NCBI GenBank assembly: GCA_963766715.1
Contig: CAVYBH010000015.1
Location: 288,001-352,000, forward strand
Origin: an uncultured delta proteobacterium
GTDB lineage: Bacteria; Myxococcota; Myxococcia; Myxococcales; Anaeromyxobacteraceae
Reading direction: 5' to 3'
Length of the DNA stretch: 64,000 nucleotides
The notes beneath the pieces were generated by a model. That model saw nothing but the letters and a program-made list of their open reading frames with translations, ran no database searches and was not told the origin of the DNA. Position 1 is the first letter of the stretch, and every line of letters begins with the position of its first letter. Shown piece by piece: positions 21,811 through 62,833 of the stretch. The translations under genes and the position numbers were made by a program.

Positions 21811-24080
21811 ATGCTCCACCTCTCCGTCCGGGCGGCCGCCGCCGCGATCGCGGTCGCCACCGCCCTCCCCGCCCTTCCCGCCGCCACCCCGCCCGGCCAC
21901 CACGCCGCCTCCTTCACGTCAGTGGAGGGGCCGCGCTGGGCTCGTACGAGGCCGGCTTCCTCTACTACATGCTGGCCGCCGGGCAGGTGAACGGCGGCGG
22001 CGGGCTCGACCTGCGGCTGGCGACCGGCGCCTCTGCCGGGAGCATCAACTCGCTCCTCGCGCTGGTCCACGCCGAGGGAGGGCTCCCGCTCGATCCCGAC
22101 CAGAGCCTGTTCGCGCGGGTCTGGCTGCCCATGGGCTTCCGCGAGCTCTTCCAGCCGGGCATGACCACGACGCTGGGCGCGTTCTCCCGCCAGGCCCTCC
22201 TCCAGGACGCGAGGCGGGTCGAGGAGGCCTTCCGCGCCGGGCTGCCGGCCTCGCTCGACGTGGTGCTGGCGGTGGCGGTGACCCGCGTCACGCCGCGGCA
22301 GCGCCGGATCGCGGCGGGCCGGGCCTCGGTCCCGCGCACCGAGGAGAAGTTCATCGTCCGCATCCAGGGGCGAGGTCCGGGGCAGATGCCCCGGATCACC
22401 AACTACGCGTCGGAGAGCCTGGAGGAGGAGCAGGCGCTCCTCCCGGAGGACGGCAAGGGCGAGATCGCCTTCGAGCGGCTGGCCAGCCTGCTCGTGGCGT
22501 CGGCCGCGTTCCCGGTGGCCTTCGCGCCGGAGAAGCTGGCCCACTGCATGGTGTCGACGCGCGGGAAGTCGCGGCCCTTCTGCCCGGTGTCGGAGGCGCG
22601 CGAGGAGCTCTTCGTCGACGGCGGGGTCTTCGACAACGCGCCGCTCCGCGTGGCGGCCTGGATCGCGGCCGGCGGCCTCCGCCCCGTGGACGGCAGGCTC
22701 CGCTGGCTCGACGCGCCGGTCTACGACGATCCGCGACCGCCGCGCGACGTCGACTTCGCCTTCCTCTCGGCCGAGGCCCGGGCCTACCCCACCGAGTCGG
22801 AGGCCCGGCGGGCCGAAGGCGACGGCGGGCTGCCCTCGCTCGTCGAGGAGGAGCTCGCGAGCTTCGTCGCGACCGCGCGGTCGAAGGAGCTCGACACGCT
22901 CGTCTCCGAGTACCCGGCGGTCACGAACGGGCTGCTCTTCGCCCAGCGCCACGTCCCCGCGGCGAGCGAGCCGATGCTGGCCTTCTTCGGCTTCTTCGAG
23001 CGTTCCTTCCGGTCGTTCGACTTCGCGCTGGGCATGTACGAGGCCCGCCGGCAGCTGCGGAAGAACCCGCTCGCGCGCGTGCAGGACCACCCCGGATCGA
23101 CCCGGTTCGTGCTGCCGGAGGAGTCCCCGGGCGCGAGGGAGAACGCCGCCTCCTGGGCGCCGCTCGCCTGCCTGGACGCGGTGCTCGACGGGGAGGGCGA
23201 CCCGGCCGTCGCCTGCGCCGGGGAGCGGCTCTCCAGCCTGCGCATCGTCCTGCAGACCTCGCTCGACCGGCTGTGGAACGCCTGCCAGGCCTTTCCCGCC
23301 ACCGGCCCCGAGGCGGCCGCCTACCCGGCCTGCACGCGGATCGTGGGGCACGCCAGGCGCCTCGCGTCCCCGGCGTCCCGGCCCCGCCCGGCTCCACGCT
23401 TGCGGGGCGCCTCCGAGTCGGAGACGGAGTACGTGGTCCGGCTGCTCGCCGACTACGGCTTCGACTGGACCGACATGGGCTACGGCCGGGCCGACGCGGC
23501 CCACGCGCTGGTGGGCATCCGGGGAGAGCTGCAGGCCGTGTCGCGGACGCTGGCGAGGCGCCAGCCCACCCTCGCCGCCCGGAGCACCGTGCAGGCCGCC
23601 ACCAACCTGGCGGTCGACTCCGTCCACTACCTGCCCCCGCGCAGTGCACTCTGGGTCACGTTCGGGCGCGCGCTCGAGGTGGGCGGCGGGGTGGCGGTGG
23701 TCGACACGCTCTGGCTGCGGCTCAGCGGCGCGCTGAAGCTCCAGAACCTCCTGACCGCCGTCTCCTCGGACCCGACCTCGGTGAGCCTGCTGCCGGTGGC
23801 CGGCGTCGAGGTGGTGCCGGCCGCCATCGGGACCTCGGTCGTCCAGCCGAGCTTCCTGCTCCGGGGCGGCTACCTCTTCGACTTCAACGACGCGGGCTGC
23901 GGCGGGAGCGCCGGGACCAGCATCGGCGAGTGCTCGCGACCGGAGGTCGAGATCGGGGCGGCGGTGGTGATCGCCTCCCTGCTCCGGATCCAGTTCCTGG
24001 TGGAGTGGTACCCGGCGGCCCGCGGCGCCCGCGGCCTCTGGGGGCTGGCGCCGTCGATGGGCTTCCAGCTCGGGTTCTGA
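21811..24080 (+). CDS. Exported patatin-like phospholipase with C-terminal beta-rich domain (indel near 21915)
   Basis: Signal peptide; VSGGAALGSYEAG Gly-rich loop (manual translation), GASAG, ASAAFP, DGGVFDN; ends GFQLGF. Confidence 0.85.
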
Positions 24081-24089
24081 TCGGGAGGA

Positions 24090-24215
24090 GGAGGAACGGG
24101 AGAGGGGGCCGGCCGTCCTTCCGGAACCCCTCTCCCCCTTCACGCCGCGTGCGCCCCTAGGGAGGACGCGCGCGTCGCCTTCGTTCAGGCCCCGGCAGCA
24201 CCGCCGGGACCTCGA
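24090..24215 (-). ncRNA. Candidate sigma54-dependent sRNA with three stem-loops
   Basis: Downstream of a sigma54 motif at 24226-24241; two hairpins plus terminal GGGAGAGGGG/CCCCTCTCCC hairpin; no credible ORF. Confidence 0.6.
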
Positions 24216-24225
24216 CTGGGAGTGT

Positions 24226-24241
24226 AGCAAGCCCGGGGCCA
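24226..24241 (-). promoter_or_regulatory. Sigma54 -24/-12 promoter
   Basis: Minus strand TGGCCCCGGGCTTGCT = TGGC-N7-TTGCT. Confidence 0.7.
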
Positions 24242-24456
24242 TCCGGTCTCCCCGCCGGCCGATCGCCCAAGCGGTCGGGATCGCGGTGAATCCAACTTCT
24301 TTTCCCGCGCCCCCCCGGCCCGCGCCGGCGCGGACGGCCACCCTGGGTGCCCGGGGCACCCCGCCCCCCGGCACCCTTCCGGTCTCGGGGCCCCGAGGTT
24401 GTGGTACCTTTTCCGGCCCGGCCACGTGGGCCGGCTGCAACGTTCACGGAGACAGC

Positions 24457-25545
24457 ATGAGCACGAAGAAGCTCCGCGTCGGCGTCCTCGGCGCCACCGG
24501 CATGGTCGGCCAGAGGTTCCTGTCGCTCCTCGAGAACCACCCCTGGTACGAGATCACCCTCGTCGCCGCCAGCGCCAACTCGGCGGGCCAGAAGTACGCC
24601 GACGCCGTGAAGGGTCGCTGGGCGCTCGGGAGCCCCCCGCCGGCGAAGTCCGGCGCGCTGGTGGTCCAGAACGCCTCCGACGTGGCCCGGATCGCCGACC
24701 AGGTCGACCTGGTCTTCTGCGCGGTGGACATGAGCAAGGAGGAGACGGCCAAGCTCGAGGAGGACTACGCGCGCCGCGAGACGCCGGTGGTCTCCAACAA
24801 CTCGGCCCACCGCGCCACGCCCGACGTGCCGATGATGGTGCCCGAGGTGAACCCGGAGCACGCCTCGGTGATCGAGGCCCAGCGGCGCCGGCTCGGCACC
24901 CGCCGCGGCTTCGTGGCCGTGAAGCCCAACTGCTCGCTGCAGAGCTACGTGCCGGCCATCCATCCCCTCATGGCCTTCGGGCCGAAGCGCATCGCGGTCT
25001 GCACGTACCAGGCGATCAGCGGCGCCGGGAAGACCTTCGAGAGCTGGCCCGAGATGGTGGACAACCTCATCCCCTTCATCAAGGGCGAGGAGGAGAAGTC
25101 GGAGAAGGAGCCCATGAAGATCTGGGGCAAGGAGGTGGACGGCCGGATCGTCCCCGCCTCGAACCCGGTCATCTCGGCCCAGTGCCTCCGCGTCCCGGTC
25201 TCCGACGGCCACATGGCCGCGGTCTTCGTCCAGTTCGACCGCAAGCCGTCGAAGGAGGAGATCATCGAGCTGTGGCGAGGGTTCGTGGGCAAGCCGCAGG
25301 TCCTCGACCTGCCCAGCGCGCCGAAGCCCTTCCTCACCTACTTCGAGGACGACAGCCGCCCCCAGACGAAGCTCGACCGGGACGCGGGTGGCGGCATGGG
25401 CGTGACCATCGGCCGGCTGCGCCCCGACGCCCTCTTCGACTACCGGTTCGTGGCCCTGAGCCACAACACGGTCCGCGGGGCGGCGGGTGGCGCGGTGCTG
25501 ACGGCCGAGCTGCTCACCCAGGAAGGCTACATCCAGGCGAAGTAG
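24457..25545 (+). CDS. asd: Aspartate-semialdehyde dehydrogenase
   Basis: VGVLGATGMVGQRF, SNNSAHR, PEVN, KPNC, QAISGAG, RVPVSDGH, SHNTVRGAAG. Confidence 0.96.
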   Translation: MSTKKLRVGVLGATGMVGQRFLSLLENHPWYEITLVAASANSAGQKYADAVKGRWALGSPPPAKSGALVVQNASDVARIADQVDLVFCAVDMSKEETAKLEEDYARRETPVVSNNSAHRATPDVPMMVPEVNPEHASVIEAQRRRLGTRRGFVAVKPNCSLQSYVPAIHPLMAFGPKRIAVCTYQAISGAGKTFESWPEMVDNLIPFIKGEEEKSEKEPMKIWGKEVDGRIVPASNPVISAQCLRVPVSDGHMAAVFVQFDRKPSKEEIIELWRGFVGKPQVLDLPSAPKPFLTYFEDDSRPQTKLDRDAGGGMGVTIGRLRPDALFDYRFVALSHNTVRGAAGGAVLTAELLTQEGYIQAK

Positions 25546-25682: not shown

Positions 25683-25698
25683 TGGCACCTACCTTGCT
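25683..25698 (+). promoter_or_regulatory. Sigma54 -24/-12 promoter
   Basis: TGGCAC-CTACC-TTGCT, matches TGGCAC-N5-TTGC(A/T) consensus. Confidence 0.8.
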
Positions 25699-25708
25699 GT
25701 AAGTGCGA

Positions 25709-25864
25709 GTGGGACCGCGACGGGACCCAATCGGATTGGCGGTTTCTGGAGGGGGATCGCCAACCCGACGGCGCACTGCGCCAGACCCGCCTGCCGGCCC
25801 CGCCTATTGCTGGGGGAGATTCAGAAGGAGGCCACCTCGGAAGAGATGGCCTCCTTCCTCTTTT
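25709..25864 (+). ncRNA. Candidate sigma54-dependent sRNA (~155 nt)
   Basis: Between consensus sigma54 promoter and intrinsic terminator; long hairpin 25731-25768 with GGAG loop. Confidence 0.65.
25824..25864 (+). terminator. Intrinsic terminator
   Basis: GAAGGAGGCCA..GGAA loop..TGGCCTCCTTC followed by CTCTTTT. Confidence 0.85.
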
Positions 25865-25884
25865 CGGGCCCGGCCTCCGGCCGG

Positions 25885-50045: not shown

Positions 50046-51998
<1,953 letters not shown>

Positions 51999-52002
<4 letters not shown>

Positions 52003-54542
52003 ACCCGTCCGACCTGCTCGATTCCCTCCCGGTGGCCGCGCTGCTCGTCCGCGGCGACGTCGTCGCCTACGCGAACCGCGCCGCCTGCGTCCTGATGGGG
52101 CTGCCGTCGGAGGCGATGGTCGGCAAGCGCTACGACACCTTCCTCTCGCCCGGCGAGGGGGACCGGGTCCGCGGACGCCGCGACCGCCGCCTGCGCGGGG
52201 TGGAGGAGCCCACGCTCTACGAGGTGAACGCGGTCACCGCCGCCGGCCGCGTCCTCCCGCTCGAGCTGCACGTCTCCCCGCTGGGCCCCGAGGAGCTCCT
52301 GCTCCAGTTCGTCGACATGTCGGCGCGCGCCGGGCACCTGGAGCGGCTGGAGGGGCTGGCCCGCCTGGGGGCCCGGGTGCAGCGCGAGCAGACGCGGGAA
52401 GGGGTGCTCGACGCCGTCGCCGGCGGCCTGCTCGAGCTGGGGCTCGCCTCCGTCCGGCTCCGCCAGGACGGGGAGTCGATGCTGGTCGAGCGCTTCGCCG
52501 CCTCCGAGCGGGTGATCGCCACGCTGGGCGCCGCCGGCCTCGAGGGCGAGCCCATCGGACGGAGCGTCCGTCCCCTTCCCTGGGCCTGGCGGGAGGGCGT
52601 CATGTTCATCGACGACGCGCCCACCGCGGCGGAGCGCATCGTGGGGTTGCCGGCCGGGATGCGGGCGGCGGTCCGCGAGGCGCGGCTCGAGCGGGCGATC
52701 GCGCTCCGGGTGGGCGATCCCGCCGAGACGGTGATCGCCGCGGTCGGCGACTGGATCGCGCCGGCCGACGTCCCCGCCTTCCGGCTCTTCGGGGCGCAGG
52801 TGACCGCGGCCTTGGCCTCGGCCGAGGCCGTGGCGGCGAGCTGGGGACGGAACCAGCTGGTGGAGGTGTCGGCGACGGCTCCCGGCCTCGCCGACTTCTT
52901 CGCCCGCGGCAGCGAGGTGGTCCAGGAGGCGCTGGCCTGCGACGGCGTGGCCATCTGGCTGCTCGACGCCGAGCACGACGAGCTCCTCCTCGGCCACTTT
53001 CGCGGGGAGTCCCCGGACATCCTGGCCCCGTTCTCCCGGATCCCGGTCTCGCGATCCCGCTACTTCGGACCGCTCCTGCGGGGCGCCCGACCCGAGCTGC
53101 TCTACCTGGACGACCTGGAGGAGCCGGAGCGCCGGGTCTTCGGCAGCGCCGGGTTCCAGAGCTTCGCCACGGTGCCCCTGCGCATCCGCTCCCGGGTGGT
53201 GGGGGTGATGACGGTCGGGTTCCACCAGCGCCGGGCCCCGCACGAGGGCGTCATCGGCACGATGCGCGGGCTGGCCGGACCCTTCGCCGCGGCGGTGGAG
53301 ACCCAGCGGCTCGTCGACGACCTGCGCCGGCGCGTCTCCGAGCTGGAGCTCATGAACGTCACCGCGGTGGCGTCGGCGACCATGAACATCCGGTCGATGC
53401 TCGGGGAGGCGCTGGCCCGCATGCTCCAGACCTTCGGGGCCGACGTCGGCGGCGCCTACCTCCTCGAGGGGGACGTGCTGGTGAACCGGGCGCTCGCCGG
53501 GGTGGTGGAGGCCGGCACCCGCGAGATGCTGGCTCGCCTTCCGGCCGGGCGCGGCGCTCCCGGCGAGGCCATGCGGACGCTGCGGCCGGTGAGCGTCGCC
53601 GCCATGTCCGACGGCTCCGACTTCACCCGCGGCCTGCGCGGCTCCGAGGGGGTCGAGACGGCGGCCGTCATCCCGCTCGTCGTCAAGAACCGGGCGCTCG
53701 GCCTCTTCGCGCTGGGGAGGCGGCGCCCGGTCCCCTTCCGCGACGTGGAGCTGCAGCTCCTCTCGGCCGTCGCCTCCCAGCTGGGCGTGGCCGTGGAGAA
53801 CTCCCGGCTCTTCGAGGACCTGACCCAGAGCTACGCCGACCTGGGACGGGCCCAGCAGCAGCTCGTCCACCGCGAGCGGCTGGTCGCCCTGGGCGAGCTC
53901 TCGGCCGTGGTGGCGCACGAGGTCCGCAACCCGCTCGCCGTCATCTTCAACTCGCTCGGCTCGCTCCAGCAGATCCTGCGCCCGGAGGGCGACGCCAAGA
54001 TGCTGCTCGGGGTCATCCAGGAGGAGGCCGACCGGCTGAACCGCATCGTCGGCGACCTGCTCGGCTTCGCCCGGCCCTCCGAGCCCGCCATGCGCGCCGA
54101 GCCGATCGACCGGGTGCTGGAGGAGGCGGTGGGCGCGGCGCTCGCCGGCGGGCCGGCGGGGATCGAAGTTCACCGCGAGTACGATACGAGGCTGCCCCCG
54201 GTCAGCATCGACCCGCACCAGGTCCGCCAGGCCCTGCTCAACCTGGCGTCGAACGCGGTGCAGGCGATGCCGCGGGGCGGGGTGCTCACCCTGCGCACCC
54301 GCGCCGAGGACCGGTTCGCGGTGGTGGAGGTGGCCGACTCCGGCCCCGGGGTCCCCGCCGAGCTCCGCGCCCGGATCTTCGAGCCCTTCTTCACCACCAA
54401 GGCCACGGGCACCGGCCTCGGCCTGGCCGTCGTGCGGCGCATCGCCGAGGGGCACGGCGGCTCGGTGGCGCTGGCGCCGCCGGGGGACGGGGGCGCGACC
54501 TTCGTGCTTGCGGCTCCCGCTCGCCCCCGCTTCCCGCGATAG
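51999..54542 (+). CDS. PAS/GAF sensor histidine kinase
   Basis: PAS-like N-terminus, GAF repeats, AHEVRNPL, NAVQAM, DSGPG, FEPFFTTK, GTGLGL. Confidence 0.92.
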
Positions 54543-54572
54543 GATGGGCGAGCCCCACGGGTCCTCCCCGCC

Positions 54573-55985
<1,413 letters not shown>

Positions 55986-56063
55986 TCAGAACTACGCCCG
56001 ACGACCACGAACACGGTCCGTCTACCGCGAACACGCTCCGTCGATCGGAACCGCCCCCCGCGA

Positions 56064-56186
56064 GTCGAGCGCCGAGACCGACGCGAGGCGGGCGCCCGAG
56101 GAGCGAGCAGCGGAGACGTAGTTTCCCTACGTCGAGCAGCGCAGCCGACGAGGCCGCCCGCCGCAGCGAGAGGATCGGCGCTCGAC
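56064..56186. repeat. 123-bp nested inverted-repeat element (REP/MITE-like)
   Basis: GTCGAGCGCCGA/TCGGCGCTCGAC terminal IR, GGCGGGCG/CGCCCGCC inner IR, central GACGTAG-N5-CTACGTC. Confidence 0.7.
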
Positions 56187-56188
56187 GC

Positions 56189-57650
56189 CTACATGCGCAG
56201 AACGGCGGCGCGAGCCCAGGCGGTCAGCGGCTCGGGCGTGAAGCCCAGCACCACCACCACCAGCGCGGCCAGCGCGATCGCGAAGGCCACGGTGGCCGGG
56301 GCCGAGGCCGGCTCCTCCCCCTCGGCGGGGCGCATGTACATCGCGACCACCACCCTCAGGTAGTAGAAGACGCCCAGGATGCTGGTGAGCACGCCCACGA
56401 TGGCGAGCCCCCAGGCCTTGGCCGCGGCGGCCGACTGGAAGATGGAGAGCTTGGCGACGAAGCCGGCCGTGGGCGGGACGCCCGCGAGCGAGAGCATGAA
56501 GATGGCCATCGCGAAGGCCAGCCAGGGGCGGCGCGCGGCCAGCCCGGCGAAGCGCGAGATGTCCCAGGCGCCGGCGACGTCGGCGTCGGGGTTCGGATCC
56601 TTGCGCTCCAGGACCGCCACCACGGCGAAGGCGCCCACCACCGTGAACGCGTAGGCCGCCAGGTAGACGAGCACGGCCGAGAGCCCCTGGGCCCGGGCCG
56701 AGGGGTCGAAGGCGGCGACCACGCCGACGAGCAGGTAGCCCGCGTGGGCGATCGAGGAGTAGGCCAGCATCCGCTTCACGTTGCGCTGCGGCAGCGCGAA
56801 GAGGTTGCCGACCACCATGGTGAGGACGGCGAGCAGGCCCAGCATCCCGCCGAACTGGGCGGAGACGGCGAGCGGCGTCCCGGCCACGACGGCGAGGGCC
56901 CCGCGGGTCAGGAAGGCGAAGGCCGCCGCCTTCACGCCGGCCGCCATGAAGGCGGTGACCGGGGTGGGCGCGCCCTCGTAGACGTCGGGCGTCCAGGCGT
57001 GGAAGGGGACCGCGGCCACCTTGAAGCCGAGGCCGACCAGCACCAGCGCGAGCCCCCCGGCCAGCAGCGGACCGCCGCCGCGGGCGAAGGCAGGCGAGCA
57101 GCGTGGAACCGGTGGCGCCGTACACCAGCGCCGAGCCGTAGAGGAAGATGGCCGACGCGAACGAGCCGAGGATGAAGTACTTGAAGGCCGCCTCGGGCGC
57201 GCGCTGCCCGCGCCGCGGGTAGGCCGCGAGCGAGTAGACGGCGAGGCTCATGATCTCGATGGCCACGAAGGCCAGCAGGAGATCGGTGGCCATGCCGAGG
57301 AGCACCATGCCGCTGGCCGCGAAGAGCACGAGCGCGTAGTACTCGCCGCGCTCCATGTTGCGCCGCTCCAGCCAGCCCCGGCCGAGCAGCACCGAGAGCA
57401 CGAGCCCCGCGCAGACCACCACGGTGACGAAGCCGGCGAAGCCGTCGGCGACGGCCTGCCCGCCGAAGATGACCCGCTGGGGCGTGAAGGGGACCACCAC
57501 CGCGGCGGCGAGCCCGAAGGCGATGGCCAGCCCGGACTGGTAGCCACGCGCCTCCGAGCGCAGGAACACCTCGGAGAGCATGAGCGCCAGCGCCCCGAGG
57601 ACGAGGAGGAAGAAGGGCAGGAGCGGCGCGAGATCGAGGCTCGACGGCAT
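56189..57650 (-). CDS. nuoN: NADH-quinone oxidoreductase subunit N (indel near 57085)
   Basis: [53 protein letters not shown]. Confidence 0.93.
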
Positions 57651-61383: not shown

Positions 61384-62833
61384 GTGACCGCCCCCCGGGA
61401 CGCTGCCGCGGAAGCCCGAAAGATCCCCAAGGCCGACCGGCTGCTGGCTGCCGCCGGCCGGGCCGGGATCACCGGCCGGCTGGGGCACGCCCCGGTCATG
61501 GAGGCCATCCGGGCCGCCCTGGACGAGGTCCGGGAGTCGGTGCTCGCGGGGGCCCCCTGCCCTCCCCCGGAGGAGGTCGAGGCCCGGTTCCTGGAGCGGC
61601 TGGCCTCCGGCGCCCGGGGAACGCTCCGGCCGGTGGTCAACGCGACCGGGGTGGTGATCCACACCAACCTGGGAAGGGCCCCCCTTTCCCGGGCCGCCAT
61701 CGAGGCGATGCAGGAGGCGGCGGGCTACTGCAACCTGGAGTTCGACCTGGAATCGGGGGATCGGGGCGACCGCTACGGCCACGCCGGGGCTGCGCTGGCC
61801 CGCCTGGCCGGCGCCGAGGCGGCGCTGGTGGTCAACAACTGCGCCTCCGCCGTGCTCCTCGCCCTCTCCGCGCTCTCCGAGCGGCTGCCCGCCCGCCGCG
61901 AAGGGGCCTCGCTGCCCGTGGCCGAGCCGGGCGCCGCCGGGCGACCCGAGGTCCTGGTCTCCCGGGGGCAGCTGGTCGAGATCGGCGGCGGGTTCCGGGT
62001 GCCGGACGTGCTCCGGCGGTCGGGCGCCGACCTGGTGGAGGTGGGCACCACCAACCGCACCTACCTCGCCGACTTCGTGGGGGCCCTCTCCCCGCGCAGC
62101 CGCATCGTCCTCACCGTCCACCGCTCCAACTTCAGGATCGAGGGGTTCGTGCACGACCCCACGCTCGCCGAGCTGGCCGACCTGGGCCGGCGCGCCGGCG
62201 TCTGGGTGGTGGAGGATTCTGGGCTCCGGCGCCCTCTTCCCCACCGCGCCCTTCGGCCTGGGGGAGGAGCCCACCGTGCCGGAGCGGGTCGCGGCGGGCC
62301 CGGACGTGGTCTGCTTCTCCGGAGACAAGCTGCTGGGCGGCCCGCAGGCCGGCATCCTGGCGGGGCGCCGGGAGGCCATCGACCTGTGCCGGCGCCACCC
62401 GCTGCTGCGGGCGCTCCGGGTGGACAAGGTGACGCTGGCCGGCCTGATCGCCACCCTCGCCCACCACGAGCGGGGCGAGGCCCTGCGGGAGATCCCGGTC
62501 TGGCGGGCCATCGCCTGGAAGCCGGAGGAGCTCCGGGCCCGGGCCTCGGCCTGGCGGGACGCGCTCTCCCTCCCCGGCGTCGAGGTCCTGGAGGGCCAGT
62601 CCGCCGTGGGCGGGGGAACCTTGCCCGGCGTGACGCTCCCCACCTTCGTGCTCGCCCTGGCTCCCGGGGACGCCGACGGGCTGGCCCGCCGCCTCCGCGA
62701 GGCCTCCCCACCGGTGGTGGCCCGGATCGAGGAGGGGCGCGTGCTCCTCGACCCGCGCACGGTGCTGCCCGGGGAGGACGACGCGGTCCTGGCCGCGATC
62801 CGCTCCGCGGTGTCCGCGCCGGTCAGGGATTGA
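61384..62833 (+). CDS. selA: L-seryl-tRNA(Sec) selenium transferase (indel near 62220)
   Basis: VVNATGVVIHTNLGRA, SRGQLVEIGGGFR, EVGTTNRT, FSGDKLLGGPQAG, RALRVDK. Confidence 0.95.

Follow-up and report, generated by a model that had tools for sequence, protein, structure and literature searches.

A predicted sigma54-type small RNA family divergent from asd in one group of myxobacteria and its candidate pairing site in the leader of an oar-like gene

The window, which is the whole stretch of 64,000 nucleotides that was analysed, belongs to the genome termed G000; related genomes are termed G001 and so on, loci are given L numbers, and all carriers that were examined are assemblies taken from sequence collections. 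On the minus strand of the window, a predicted small RNA (sRNA) of three hairpins (SL1 to SL3) lies between asd, from which it is divergently oriented, and a convergent patatin-domain gene (Table 1). Several genes of the window look frameshifted, perhaps due to assembly errors. Moreover, SelB winged-helix and SelA fragments are present at 51052-51999 and 62276-62830, about 10 kb apart.

Table 1 Coordinates of the predicted sRNA, its neighbours and the loci used for comparison
Feature	Position	Strand	Basis or remark
Predicted sRNA, ~130 nt	24083-24216	-	Start at 24216-24213 placed by promoter spacing; long relatives of 249-316 nt
Predicted sigma54 (-24/-12) promoter, TGGCCCCGGGCTTGCT	24226-24241	-	Sequence motif; kept in 12/13 copies
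Conserved upstream box (GATCC repeat and GATCCCG-N5-TTG)	24268-24293	-	Candidate site of an activator or a DNA-bending protein
SL1, P1 helix of 5' leader (GAGGYCC) and end of deleted sORF (GGGCCU; remnant TGA at 24187-24185)	24187-24212	-	Fold and comparison
SL2, with seed CUCCCUAGG (24164-24156) and loop CCCUA (24162-24158)	24142-24178	-	Predicted target pairing by 24166-24154
SL3, terminator-like hairpin (stem 24136-24098, invariant loop GGACG, pyrimidine tail)	24083-24136	-	Tail weak in window copy; terminator scan calls none
asd (aspartate-semialdehyde dehydrogenase)	24457-25545	+	Pfam, synteny; divergent neighbour in every copy examined
Patatin-domain gene	21969-24080	+	Convergent; not a conserved neighbour
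Canonical pxr neighbourhood, pxr slot empty	51999-57043		Synteny test; not part of the element
Kinase gene (pxrK-like)	51999-54539		pxr neighbourhood
PxrR orthologue	54573-55982		Best match, 60-62% identity
NADH-dehydrogenase-like gene	56192-57043		pxr neighbourhood
oar-like TonB-dependent transporter gene	G000:C8, start 451928	-	Predicted pairing site at -17 to -5

The element has close relatives within its genus. A DNA search of 41 related genomes yielded seven homologues, every one of which is divergent from asd. A covariance model of SL2 and SL3, which was built from the window copy and these seven homologues (8 sequences), detected one copy each in 11 of the 14 genomes of the genus, three of them new, and a single weak match to the terminator part in 78 genomes of other genera (L095 in G067). 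Moreover, two of three pattern matches in metagenomes are family members, giving 13 distinct copies in total. This count leaves out the third metagenome match, which is devoid of the family structure (L097), the terminator-like L095, and eight matches in a genome collection that are likely to stem from the same species set as the G genomes (L076-L083). The three genus genomes in which no member was detected are G006 (74% complete, asd likewise not detected), G008 (94%) and G010 (99%), and the viral contigs searched with the family pattern gave zero matches. No Rfam model reached its gathering level in the window or in four related loci, and the matches obtained by E-value on 23900-24500 were GC-hairpin noise (isrO, miRNAs). 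A scan for sigma70 promoters and terminators called nothing at the element. One soil metatranscriptome (7% shared words) was uninformative, with contigs on the asd of other organisms and zero on 24074-24277. The literature searched on sRNAs of Anaeromyxobacter and other myxobacteria, sigma54, dual-function RNAs and oar holds no description of the family, and sRNA lists in supplements or subscription papers might include it.

The sigma54 promoter consensus is GG-N10-GC. The motif at 24241-24226 places the transcription start at about 24215, where the first-pass annotation had proposed a minus-strand sRNA to begin; this proposal is supported. In 12 of the 13 copies, a GG-N10-GC motif precedes the leader by 9-10 nt, and the remaining copy, that of G013, has a broken cytochrome-like gene in place of the promoter. 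G000 contains a match to the RpoN DNA-binding domain and 31 matches to PF00158. The upstream box is present in all promoter-bearing copies (12/12). Its distance from the -24 element is 35-37 nt in 11 copies; in the window copy, the distance is 26 nt, i.e. one helical turn less. A position weight matrix of the box has 56 matches on G000, of which solely the training site precedes a sigma54 motif; thus, no regulon or activator can be named. The DNA downstream of the element is not conserved and the genes there change between genomes, the patatin gene being a neighbour in just 2 of the 13 loci. An attenuator was also considered but discarded, since conservation does not extend to any co-oriented gene downstream and the neighbours are convergent wherever they are readable (L084, L090, L092 and L096 have too little flank or no clear ORF). 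In G018 of the sister genus, a sigma54 motif occupies the same position upstream of asd and is followed by a different hydrophobic ORF of ~60 codons, without the seed module (L056). This arrangement is possibly related to the origin of the sRNA family.

The three minus-strand hairpins, which had been noticed by eye, are present in the sequence and in the minimum free energy (MFE) fold of 24216-24083. SL1 consists of 11 bp closed by a GUGC loop, and SL3 is followed by GUUCCUCCUCCUCCC, which is a pyrimidine run rather than a clean U-tract, as had been annotated. For SL2, the hairpin and its C-rich top were confirmed, but not the CCUCCCU apex, as the predicted loop is CCCUA and the CCU sits in the weak top of the stem. 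The folding z-scores were -0.20 for 24080-24250, -2.23 for the minus strand of 24085-24216 and -3.70 for the plus strand of the same interval, and SL1 alone was significant among the hairpins (z -4.56). By themselves, these values are modest evidence and do not pick a strand. It is the comparative evidence, i.e. promoter, seed, covariation and tails, rather than the folding that lifts the element above chance. Across SL2 and SL3, 90.9% of the cells are paired and 7 of 28 pairs show double-sided changes; the covariation score was reached by none of 500 shuffles, a significance that is inflated by kinship among the copies. The minus-sense strand carries T-rich tails in 13/13 copies (4-8 T of 10 vs 0-3 on the other strand). 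Furthermore, the seed is intact in 12/13 copies and altered solely in the promoter-less G013 copy, and across the 10 long copies its column identity is 0.97 as compared to 0.57 for the adjacent spacer. The loop and closing stem of SL3 (GGACGGCCGG, 24120-24111, minus strand) are invariant in 13/13 copies, which is unusual for a plain terminator. A loop-loop pairing of SL2 and SL3 that was spotted by eye in three copies does not hold across the family. The element is not Pxr but a predicted, undescribed small regulatory RNA of one myxobacterial group, and we are confident that it has some function as an RNA.

Most members of the family are longer than the window copy. In 11 of the 13 distinct copies, the RNA is 249-316 nt long and carries a small ORF (sORF) of 35-68 codons. 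A Shine-Dalgarno (SD) sequence and a start codon at positions 40-42 are found at the same place in 11/11 long copies, and the long relatives usually appear to encode a peptide of ~44 amino acids with an Arg-rich C-terminus. The 5' leader pairs with the end of the ORF, thereby enclosing the ORF in a long P1 rod. This duplex can form in 13/13 copies and is part of the full-length MFE fold of 11/13 (not G004 and G012), and the Arg-rich tail of the peptide may partly be dictated by P1 pairing. The window copy is ~148 nt shorter than L098, a close relative of the long form with the same patatin neighbour. As judged from this comparison, SL1 of the window copy is the closed base of P1 and the scar of a ~148-nt sORF deletion. 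The copy of G012 became short separately, as it belongs to another branch of the asd tree, and in G007 the ORF is frameshifted by an internal duplication.

The seed points to a candidate target. By searching the genus for exact seed complements ahead of start codons, a recurring context, CTAGGGAGGAAGTC-ATG, was found in 11 of the 14 genomes as the ribosome-binding site (RBS) of a gene for an Oar-type TonB-dependent transporter (TBDT). The earlier idea that an anti-SD loop could pair with ribosome-binding sites has thus gained oar as a specific candidate. The site CTCCTAGGGAGG-ATG is present in 11/14 genus genomes and in 1 of 78 others, there with different flanks, and it is the single CTAGGGAG-start context that occurs in more than about seven genomes. 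In G000, the gene encodes CarboxypepD_reg and OMP barrel domains, its ORF is split by a frameshift in the assembly, and TonB and ExbB/ExbD-like genes (the latter named by eye) are divergent from it. The cognate sRNA and oar leader can form 11-15 contiguous bp in 9 of the 10 genomes having both parts and 6 bp in G013. For instance, a UU change in G002 and G003 breaks the SL2 stem yet extends the target pairing to 15 bp. With respect to contiguous pairing through the loop, oar ranks first among the 4052 self-called genes of G000, by a metric that was chosen after the candidate had been seen.

The sRNA and the oar site are also distributed alike. They occur together in 10 genus genomes, including G013 with its decayed RNA, which retains the oar site although the promoter and seed of its sRNA copy are lost. 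G007 (70% complete) has the RNA only and G006 (74% complete) the site only, and both are absent in G008 and G010. The latter genome (99% complete) is nested inside the sRNA clade with a support of 95/95, and its proximal oar leader is otherwise identical, minus the single A that faces the loop. In G008, the T of the site is missing and the gene is a different TBDT with an RBS like that of the sister genus, so that G008 may represent an ancestral condition and not decay. Among the orthologues of other genera, of which 20 of about 34 matches were compared, 20/20 are devoid of the CTAG core, the CTCTC/GGAGG flanks are mostly kept and the pairing comprises 7-9 bp. However, conservation within the genus is strong over the full oar leader, so a conserved site is not in itself specific. 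Since kin are not independent, the co-distribution would amount to about two independent events, one gain and one loss in G010. The leader of ~125 nt (G000:C8:451928-452070, minus strand; L100/L113) also has a TTGACA-17-TAGAAA promoter and a covarying hairpin; it is without an Rfam match and may hold further regulatory elements.

These observations suggest the following mechanism. An enhancer-binding protein would activate the sigma54 promoter, which would drive the synthesis of a trans-acting sRNA. The CCCUA loop of SL2 would nucleate on UAGGG in the RBS of the oar mRNA, and the contact would zip into a duplex of 11-15 bp over the SD sequence, thereby blocking oar translation without Hfq, for which no match was found in G000 (85% complete). 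In the majority of relatives, this RNA would in addition encode the ~44-amino-acid peptide held inside the P1 rod, and in the window copy the peptide would have been deleted and the RNA function kept. The conservation, synteny, covariation, deletion, complementarity and co-distribution that are observed fit a dual-function sRNA of the SgrS kind that acts without Hfq and represses oar in the manner of ChvR. We consider this reading rather probable, its transcription, sigma54 dependence, peptide translation, binding and repression being predicted from sequence.

An unlikely alternative is that the RNA is a real sigma54-dependent sRNA whose anti-SD loop regulates other or many mRNAs, the oar match being incidental. 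Five genes of G000 indeed have CCTAGGGAG within 28 nt of the start. Moreover, the energy scan of all 4052 genes is non-specific: 3062 genes passed the loose energy cut, the ranking places other genes ahead of oar, and oar came 13th among the 120 best hybrids that were rescored for accessibility. The invariant GGACG loop of SL3 suggests a second functional site that is not explained by oar. However, it is the oar site alone that tracks the sRNA across genomes.

It is improbable that the locus is essentially a sigma54-driven gene for a small peptide, such as a small membrane protein or a type I toxin-like mRNA, with a structured 3' UTR, the window copy being a decaying pseudogene. The coding evidence is mixed. 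The constant place of the SD sequence and the start codon speaks for such a gene, as does the codon usage, with T at position 2 at a frequency of 0.46 vs 0.07/0.03 and a GC3 of 0.92 (the frameshifted G007 was excluded from the codon statistics); the shortened box spacing and the weakened tail would suit a pseudogene. The peptide has a hydrophobic N-terminus (best 17-residue hydropathy 1.8-2.5) and a net charge of +3 to +9. The pN/pS of the sORF is 0.97, and that of the other frames is 0.80-1.24. No significant Pfam match was obtained (best E 0.099, in 1 of 10 members), just unnamed clusters below 0.9 were retrieved from the Atlas, and a peptide search returned 3 of 1.84 billion representatives, all from this sRNA family. 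However, three separate lineages have lost the peptide or carry a broken version (G000, G012 and, by frameshift, G007), with promoter, seed and SL3 remaining intact, and the seed decays solely where the promoter is lost, in G013. In type I toxin-antitoxin systems, a 3' anti-SD sequence of the mRNA sequesters the toxin's own SD and the antitoxin is a cis-antisense RNA. Such own-SD sequestration was rejected here, as the probability of pairing between SD and seed is 0.0 in 11/11 long copies, in which all or part of the SD is instead base-paired inside the P1 domain.

It is still less credible that the RNA acts as a CsrB-like decoy, in which SL2 mimics the CCUAGG hairpin of the oar RBS and titrates its protein, or that it dimerises via the palindromic CCCUAGGG loop. 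The CCUAGG core is palindromic and hence has an identical sequence in sRNA and oar leader, and the oar RBS itself folds into a hairpin with a CUA loop. However, a mimic should retain the 3' flank GAGG of its target, where the sRNA varies, and the change in G002 and G003 is complementary to the target rather than identical. Decoys of the CsrB/RsmY type have several GGA loops and a genomic CsrA; the element has one such loop, in SL3, and CsrA (PF02599) was not found in G000 (85% complete).

The first-pass annotation had named as its own refutation that the hairpins are nothing but the terminator of the convergent patatin gene, without a minus-strand RNA. About 15 nt separate the patatin stop from the beginning of SL3, and the z-score of the fold is better for the plus strand, but this view has very little probability because the element is conserved beside other convergent genes, the T-tails are on the minus-sense strand, and promoter and seed would be left unexplained. 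Least probable of all is a divergent Pxr homologue, in spite of the sigma54 promoter, the three stem-loops, the C-rich loop and the same bacterial order, given the missing RF01812 match, the wrong locus, the C-rich loop in another hairpin and the origin of SL1 as a deletion scar.

The comparison with Pxr (RF01812), to which the annotation had likened the hairpins, can be made in some detail. The model gave no match in G000 at E≤1 and was absent from the matches at E≤10 on 23900-24500, and in two genomes of the same order it found real Pxr copies with 134.8 and 122.8 bits. These copies have the C-rich loop in SL1, and the element has it in SL2. Pxr is further characterised by its processing into L/S forms and by a block of development. 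The available descriptions agree with the element in the myxobacterial origin, the sigma54 promoter motif, the three stem-loops and the C-rich loop (PMC5684412, PMC5568312, PMC11928866, PMC10217877); in contrast to Pxr, most copies of the element contain a sORF. As far as these sources describe it, pxr sits behind pxrR (nla19) and ahead of an NADH dehydrogenase gene (PMC5684412, PMC5568312). In the window, this neighbourhood lies 30 kb from the element, which is divergent from asd and not behind pxrR. The slot behind the PxrR orthologue (55986-56191) contains no GG-N10-GC motif on the plus strand and no Pxr, leaving the regulator pair without its known sRNA. Since SL1 is the remnant of the deleted sORF domain, the three-hairpin likeness to Pxr is partly accidental. 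According to the accessible part of a recent study, the oar transcript is one of those that change when pxr is deleted, and the direct targets of Pxr were still described as unknown in 2025 (PMC11928866).

Two further sigma54-associated elements were observed in G000. The most Pxr-like layout seen in this genome is located after mutL (G000:C12:599281-599450, plus strand; L101/L157), where a sigma54 promoter is followed by a long first hairpin with an UCUCCCCCCC loop. It is conserved in 8 of the 13 further genomes of the genus and matched more weakly in G018, and it has no RF01812 match. Its GAT-N-TTG box is about 15 nt ahead of the promoter, as compared to 26 or 36 nt in the 24083-24216 family, which is roughly in helical phase. 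A second sRNA candidate of the window lies just after asd (25683-25865, plus strand) and consists of the promoter TGGCACCTACCTTGCT, a hairpin whose loop (GGAGGGGG) is SD-like, and a terminator; related elements with a promoter and a hairpin follow asd in G001, G004, G008, G012 and G018. Both the 24083-24216 element and the C12 element have anti-SD loops complementary to this SD-like loop, and the co-occurrence of the candidate with the former element is not strict. A sponge for sRNAs with anti-SD loops is a possible role of this RNA.

A wider reading, which is offered only tentatively, would see the favoured dual-function, sigma54-dependent and Hfq-independent RNA as born within the genus, with a palindromic seed in its loop whose gain and decay went along with those of the oar RBS site. 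The rod-locked and repeatedly shed membrane peptide might act on the same envelope system, and the RNA might be one node in an unreported set of sigma54 sRNAs whose SD-like and anti-SD-like loops complement each other, the genome having pxrK-pxrR and lacking pxr. Pxr is the sole sRNA found in the myxobacterial literature that was searched, and the predicted oar pairing would add a concrete sRNA-target pair that can be tested by mutation. Moreover, the family offers natural experiments, namely ORF-less copies, a promoter-less copy and genomes without both RNA and site. Thus, it gives a compact view of the gain and loss of a young sRNA, a peptide and a target site in a lineage without detected Hfq.

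Among known systems, the predicted target resembles Oar of Myxococcus xanthus, for which a PF13620 N-terminal extension, an outer membrane barrel and a linked Ton system have been described in the part of the report available, as well as a requirement of oar for protein secretion and development (PMC6434023). It is alike in the extension, the barrel and the linked Ton system, whereas its identity to the best matches in the two Pxr-bearing genomes is about 38-39%. The layout of the RNA recalls the enterobacterial SgrS/SgrT, as outlined in the accessible text: this RNA of 200-300 nt carries an sORF of about 40-57 codons at its 5' end and, ahead of the terminator, a conserved 3' region for pairing with its target, a transporter mRNA, and natural ORF-less short forms of 84-139 nt occur among the Yersinia homologues (PMC2760817). 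The likeness comprises the layout, the natural loss of the ORF and the transporter mRNA, which is here a predicted target (PMC2760817). However, no sequence kinship was found, and the element differs from SgrS by its sigma54-type promoter, the lack of a detected Hfq, the ORF enclosed in a 5'-to-stop helix and the seed in a hairpin loop. Furthermore, the ORF loss in SgrS is described as a 5' truncation, whereas that in the element is an internal deletion (PMC2760817). ChvR of Caulobacter crescentus is reported to be an Hfq-independent trans-acting sRNA that represses the TonB-dependent receptor mRNA chvT by base pairing, and is thus alike in target class and Hfq independence (PMC6237742). In contrast to the element, with its predicted pairing to an Oar-class TBDT mRNA, ChvR is controlled by ChvIG and uses two pairing sites, and the accessible part of that report mentions no peptide (PMC6237742). 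The element belongs to neither SgrS nor ChvR.
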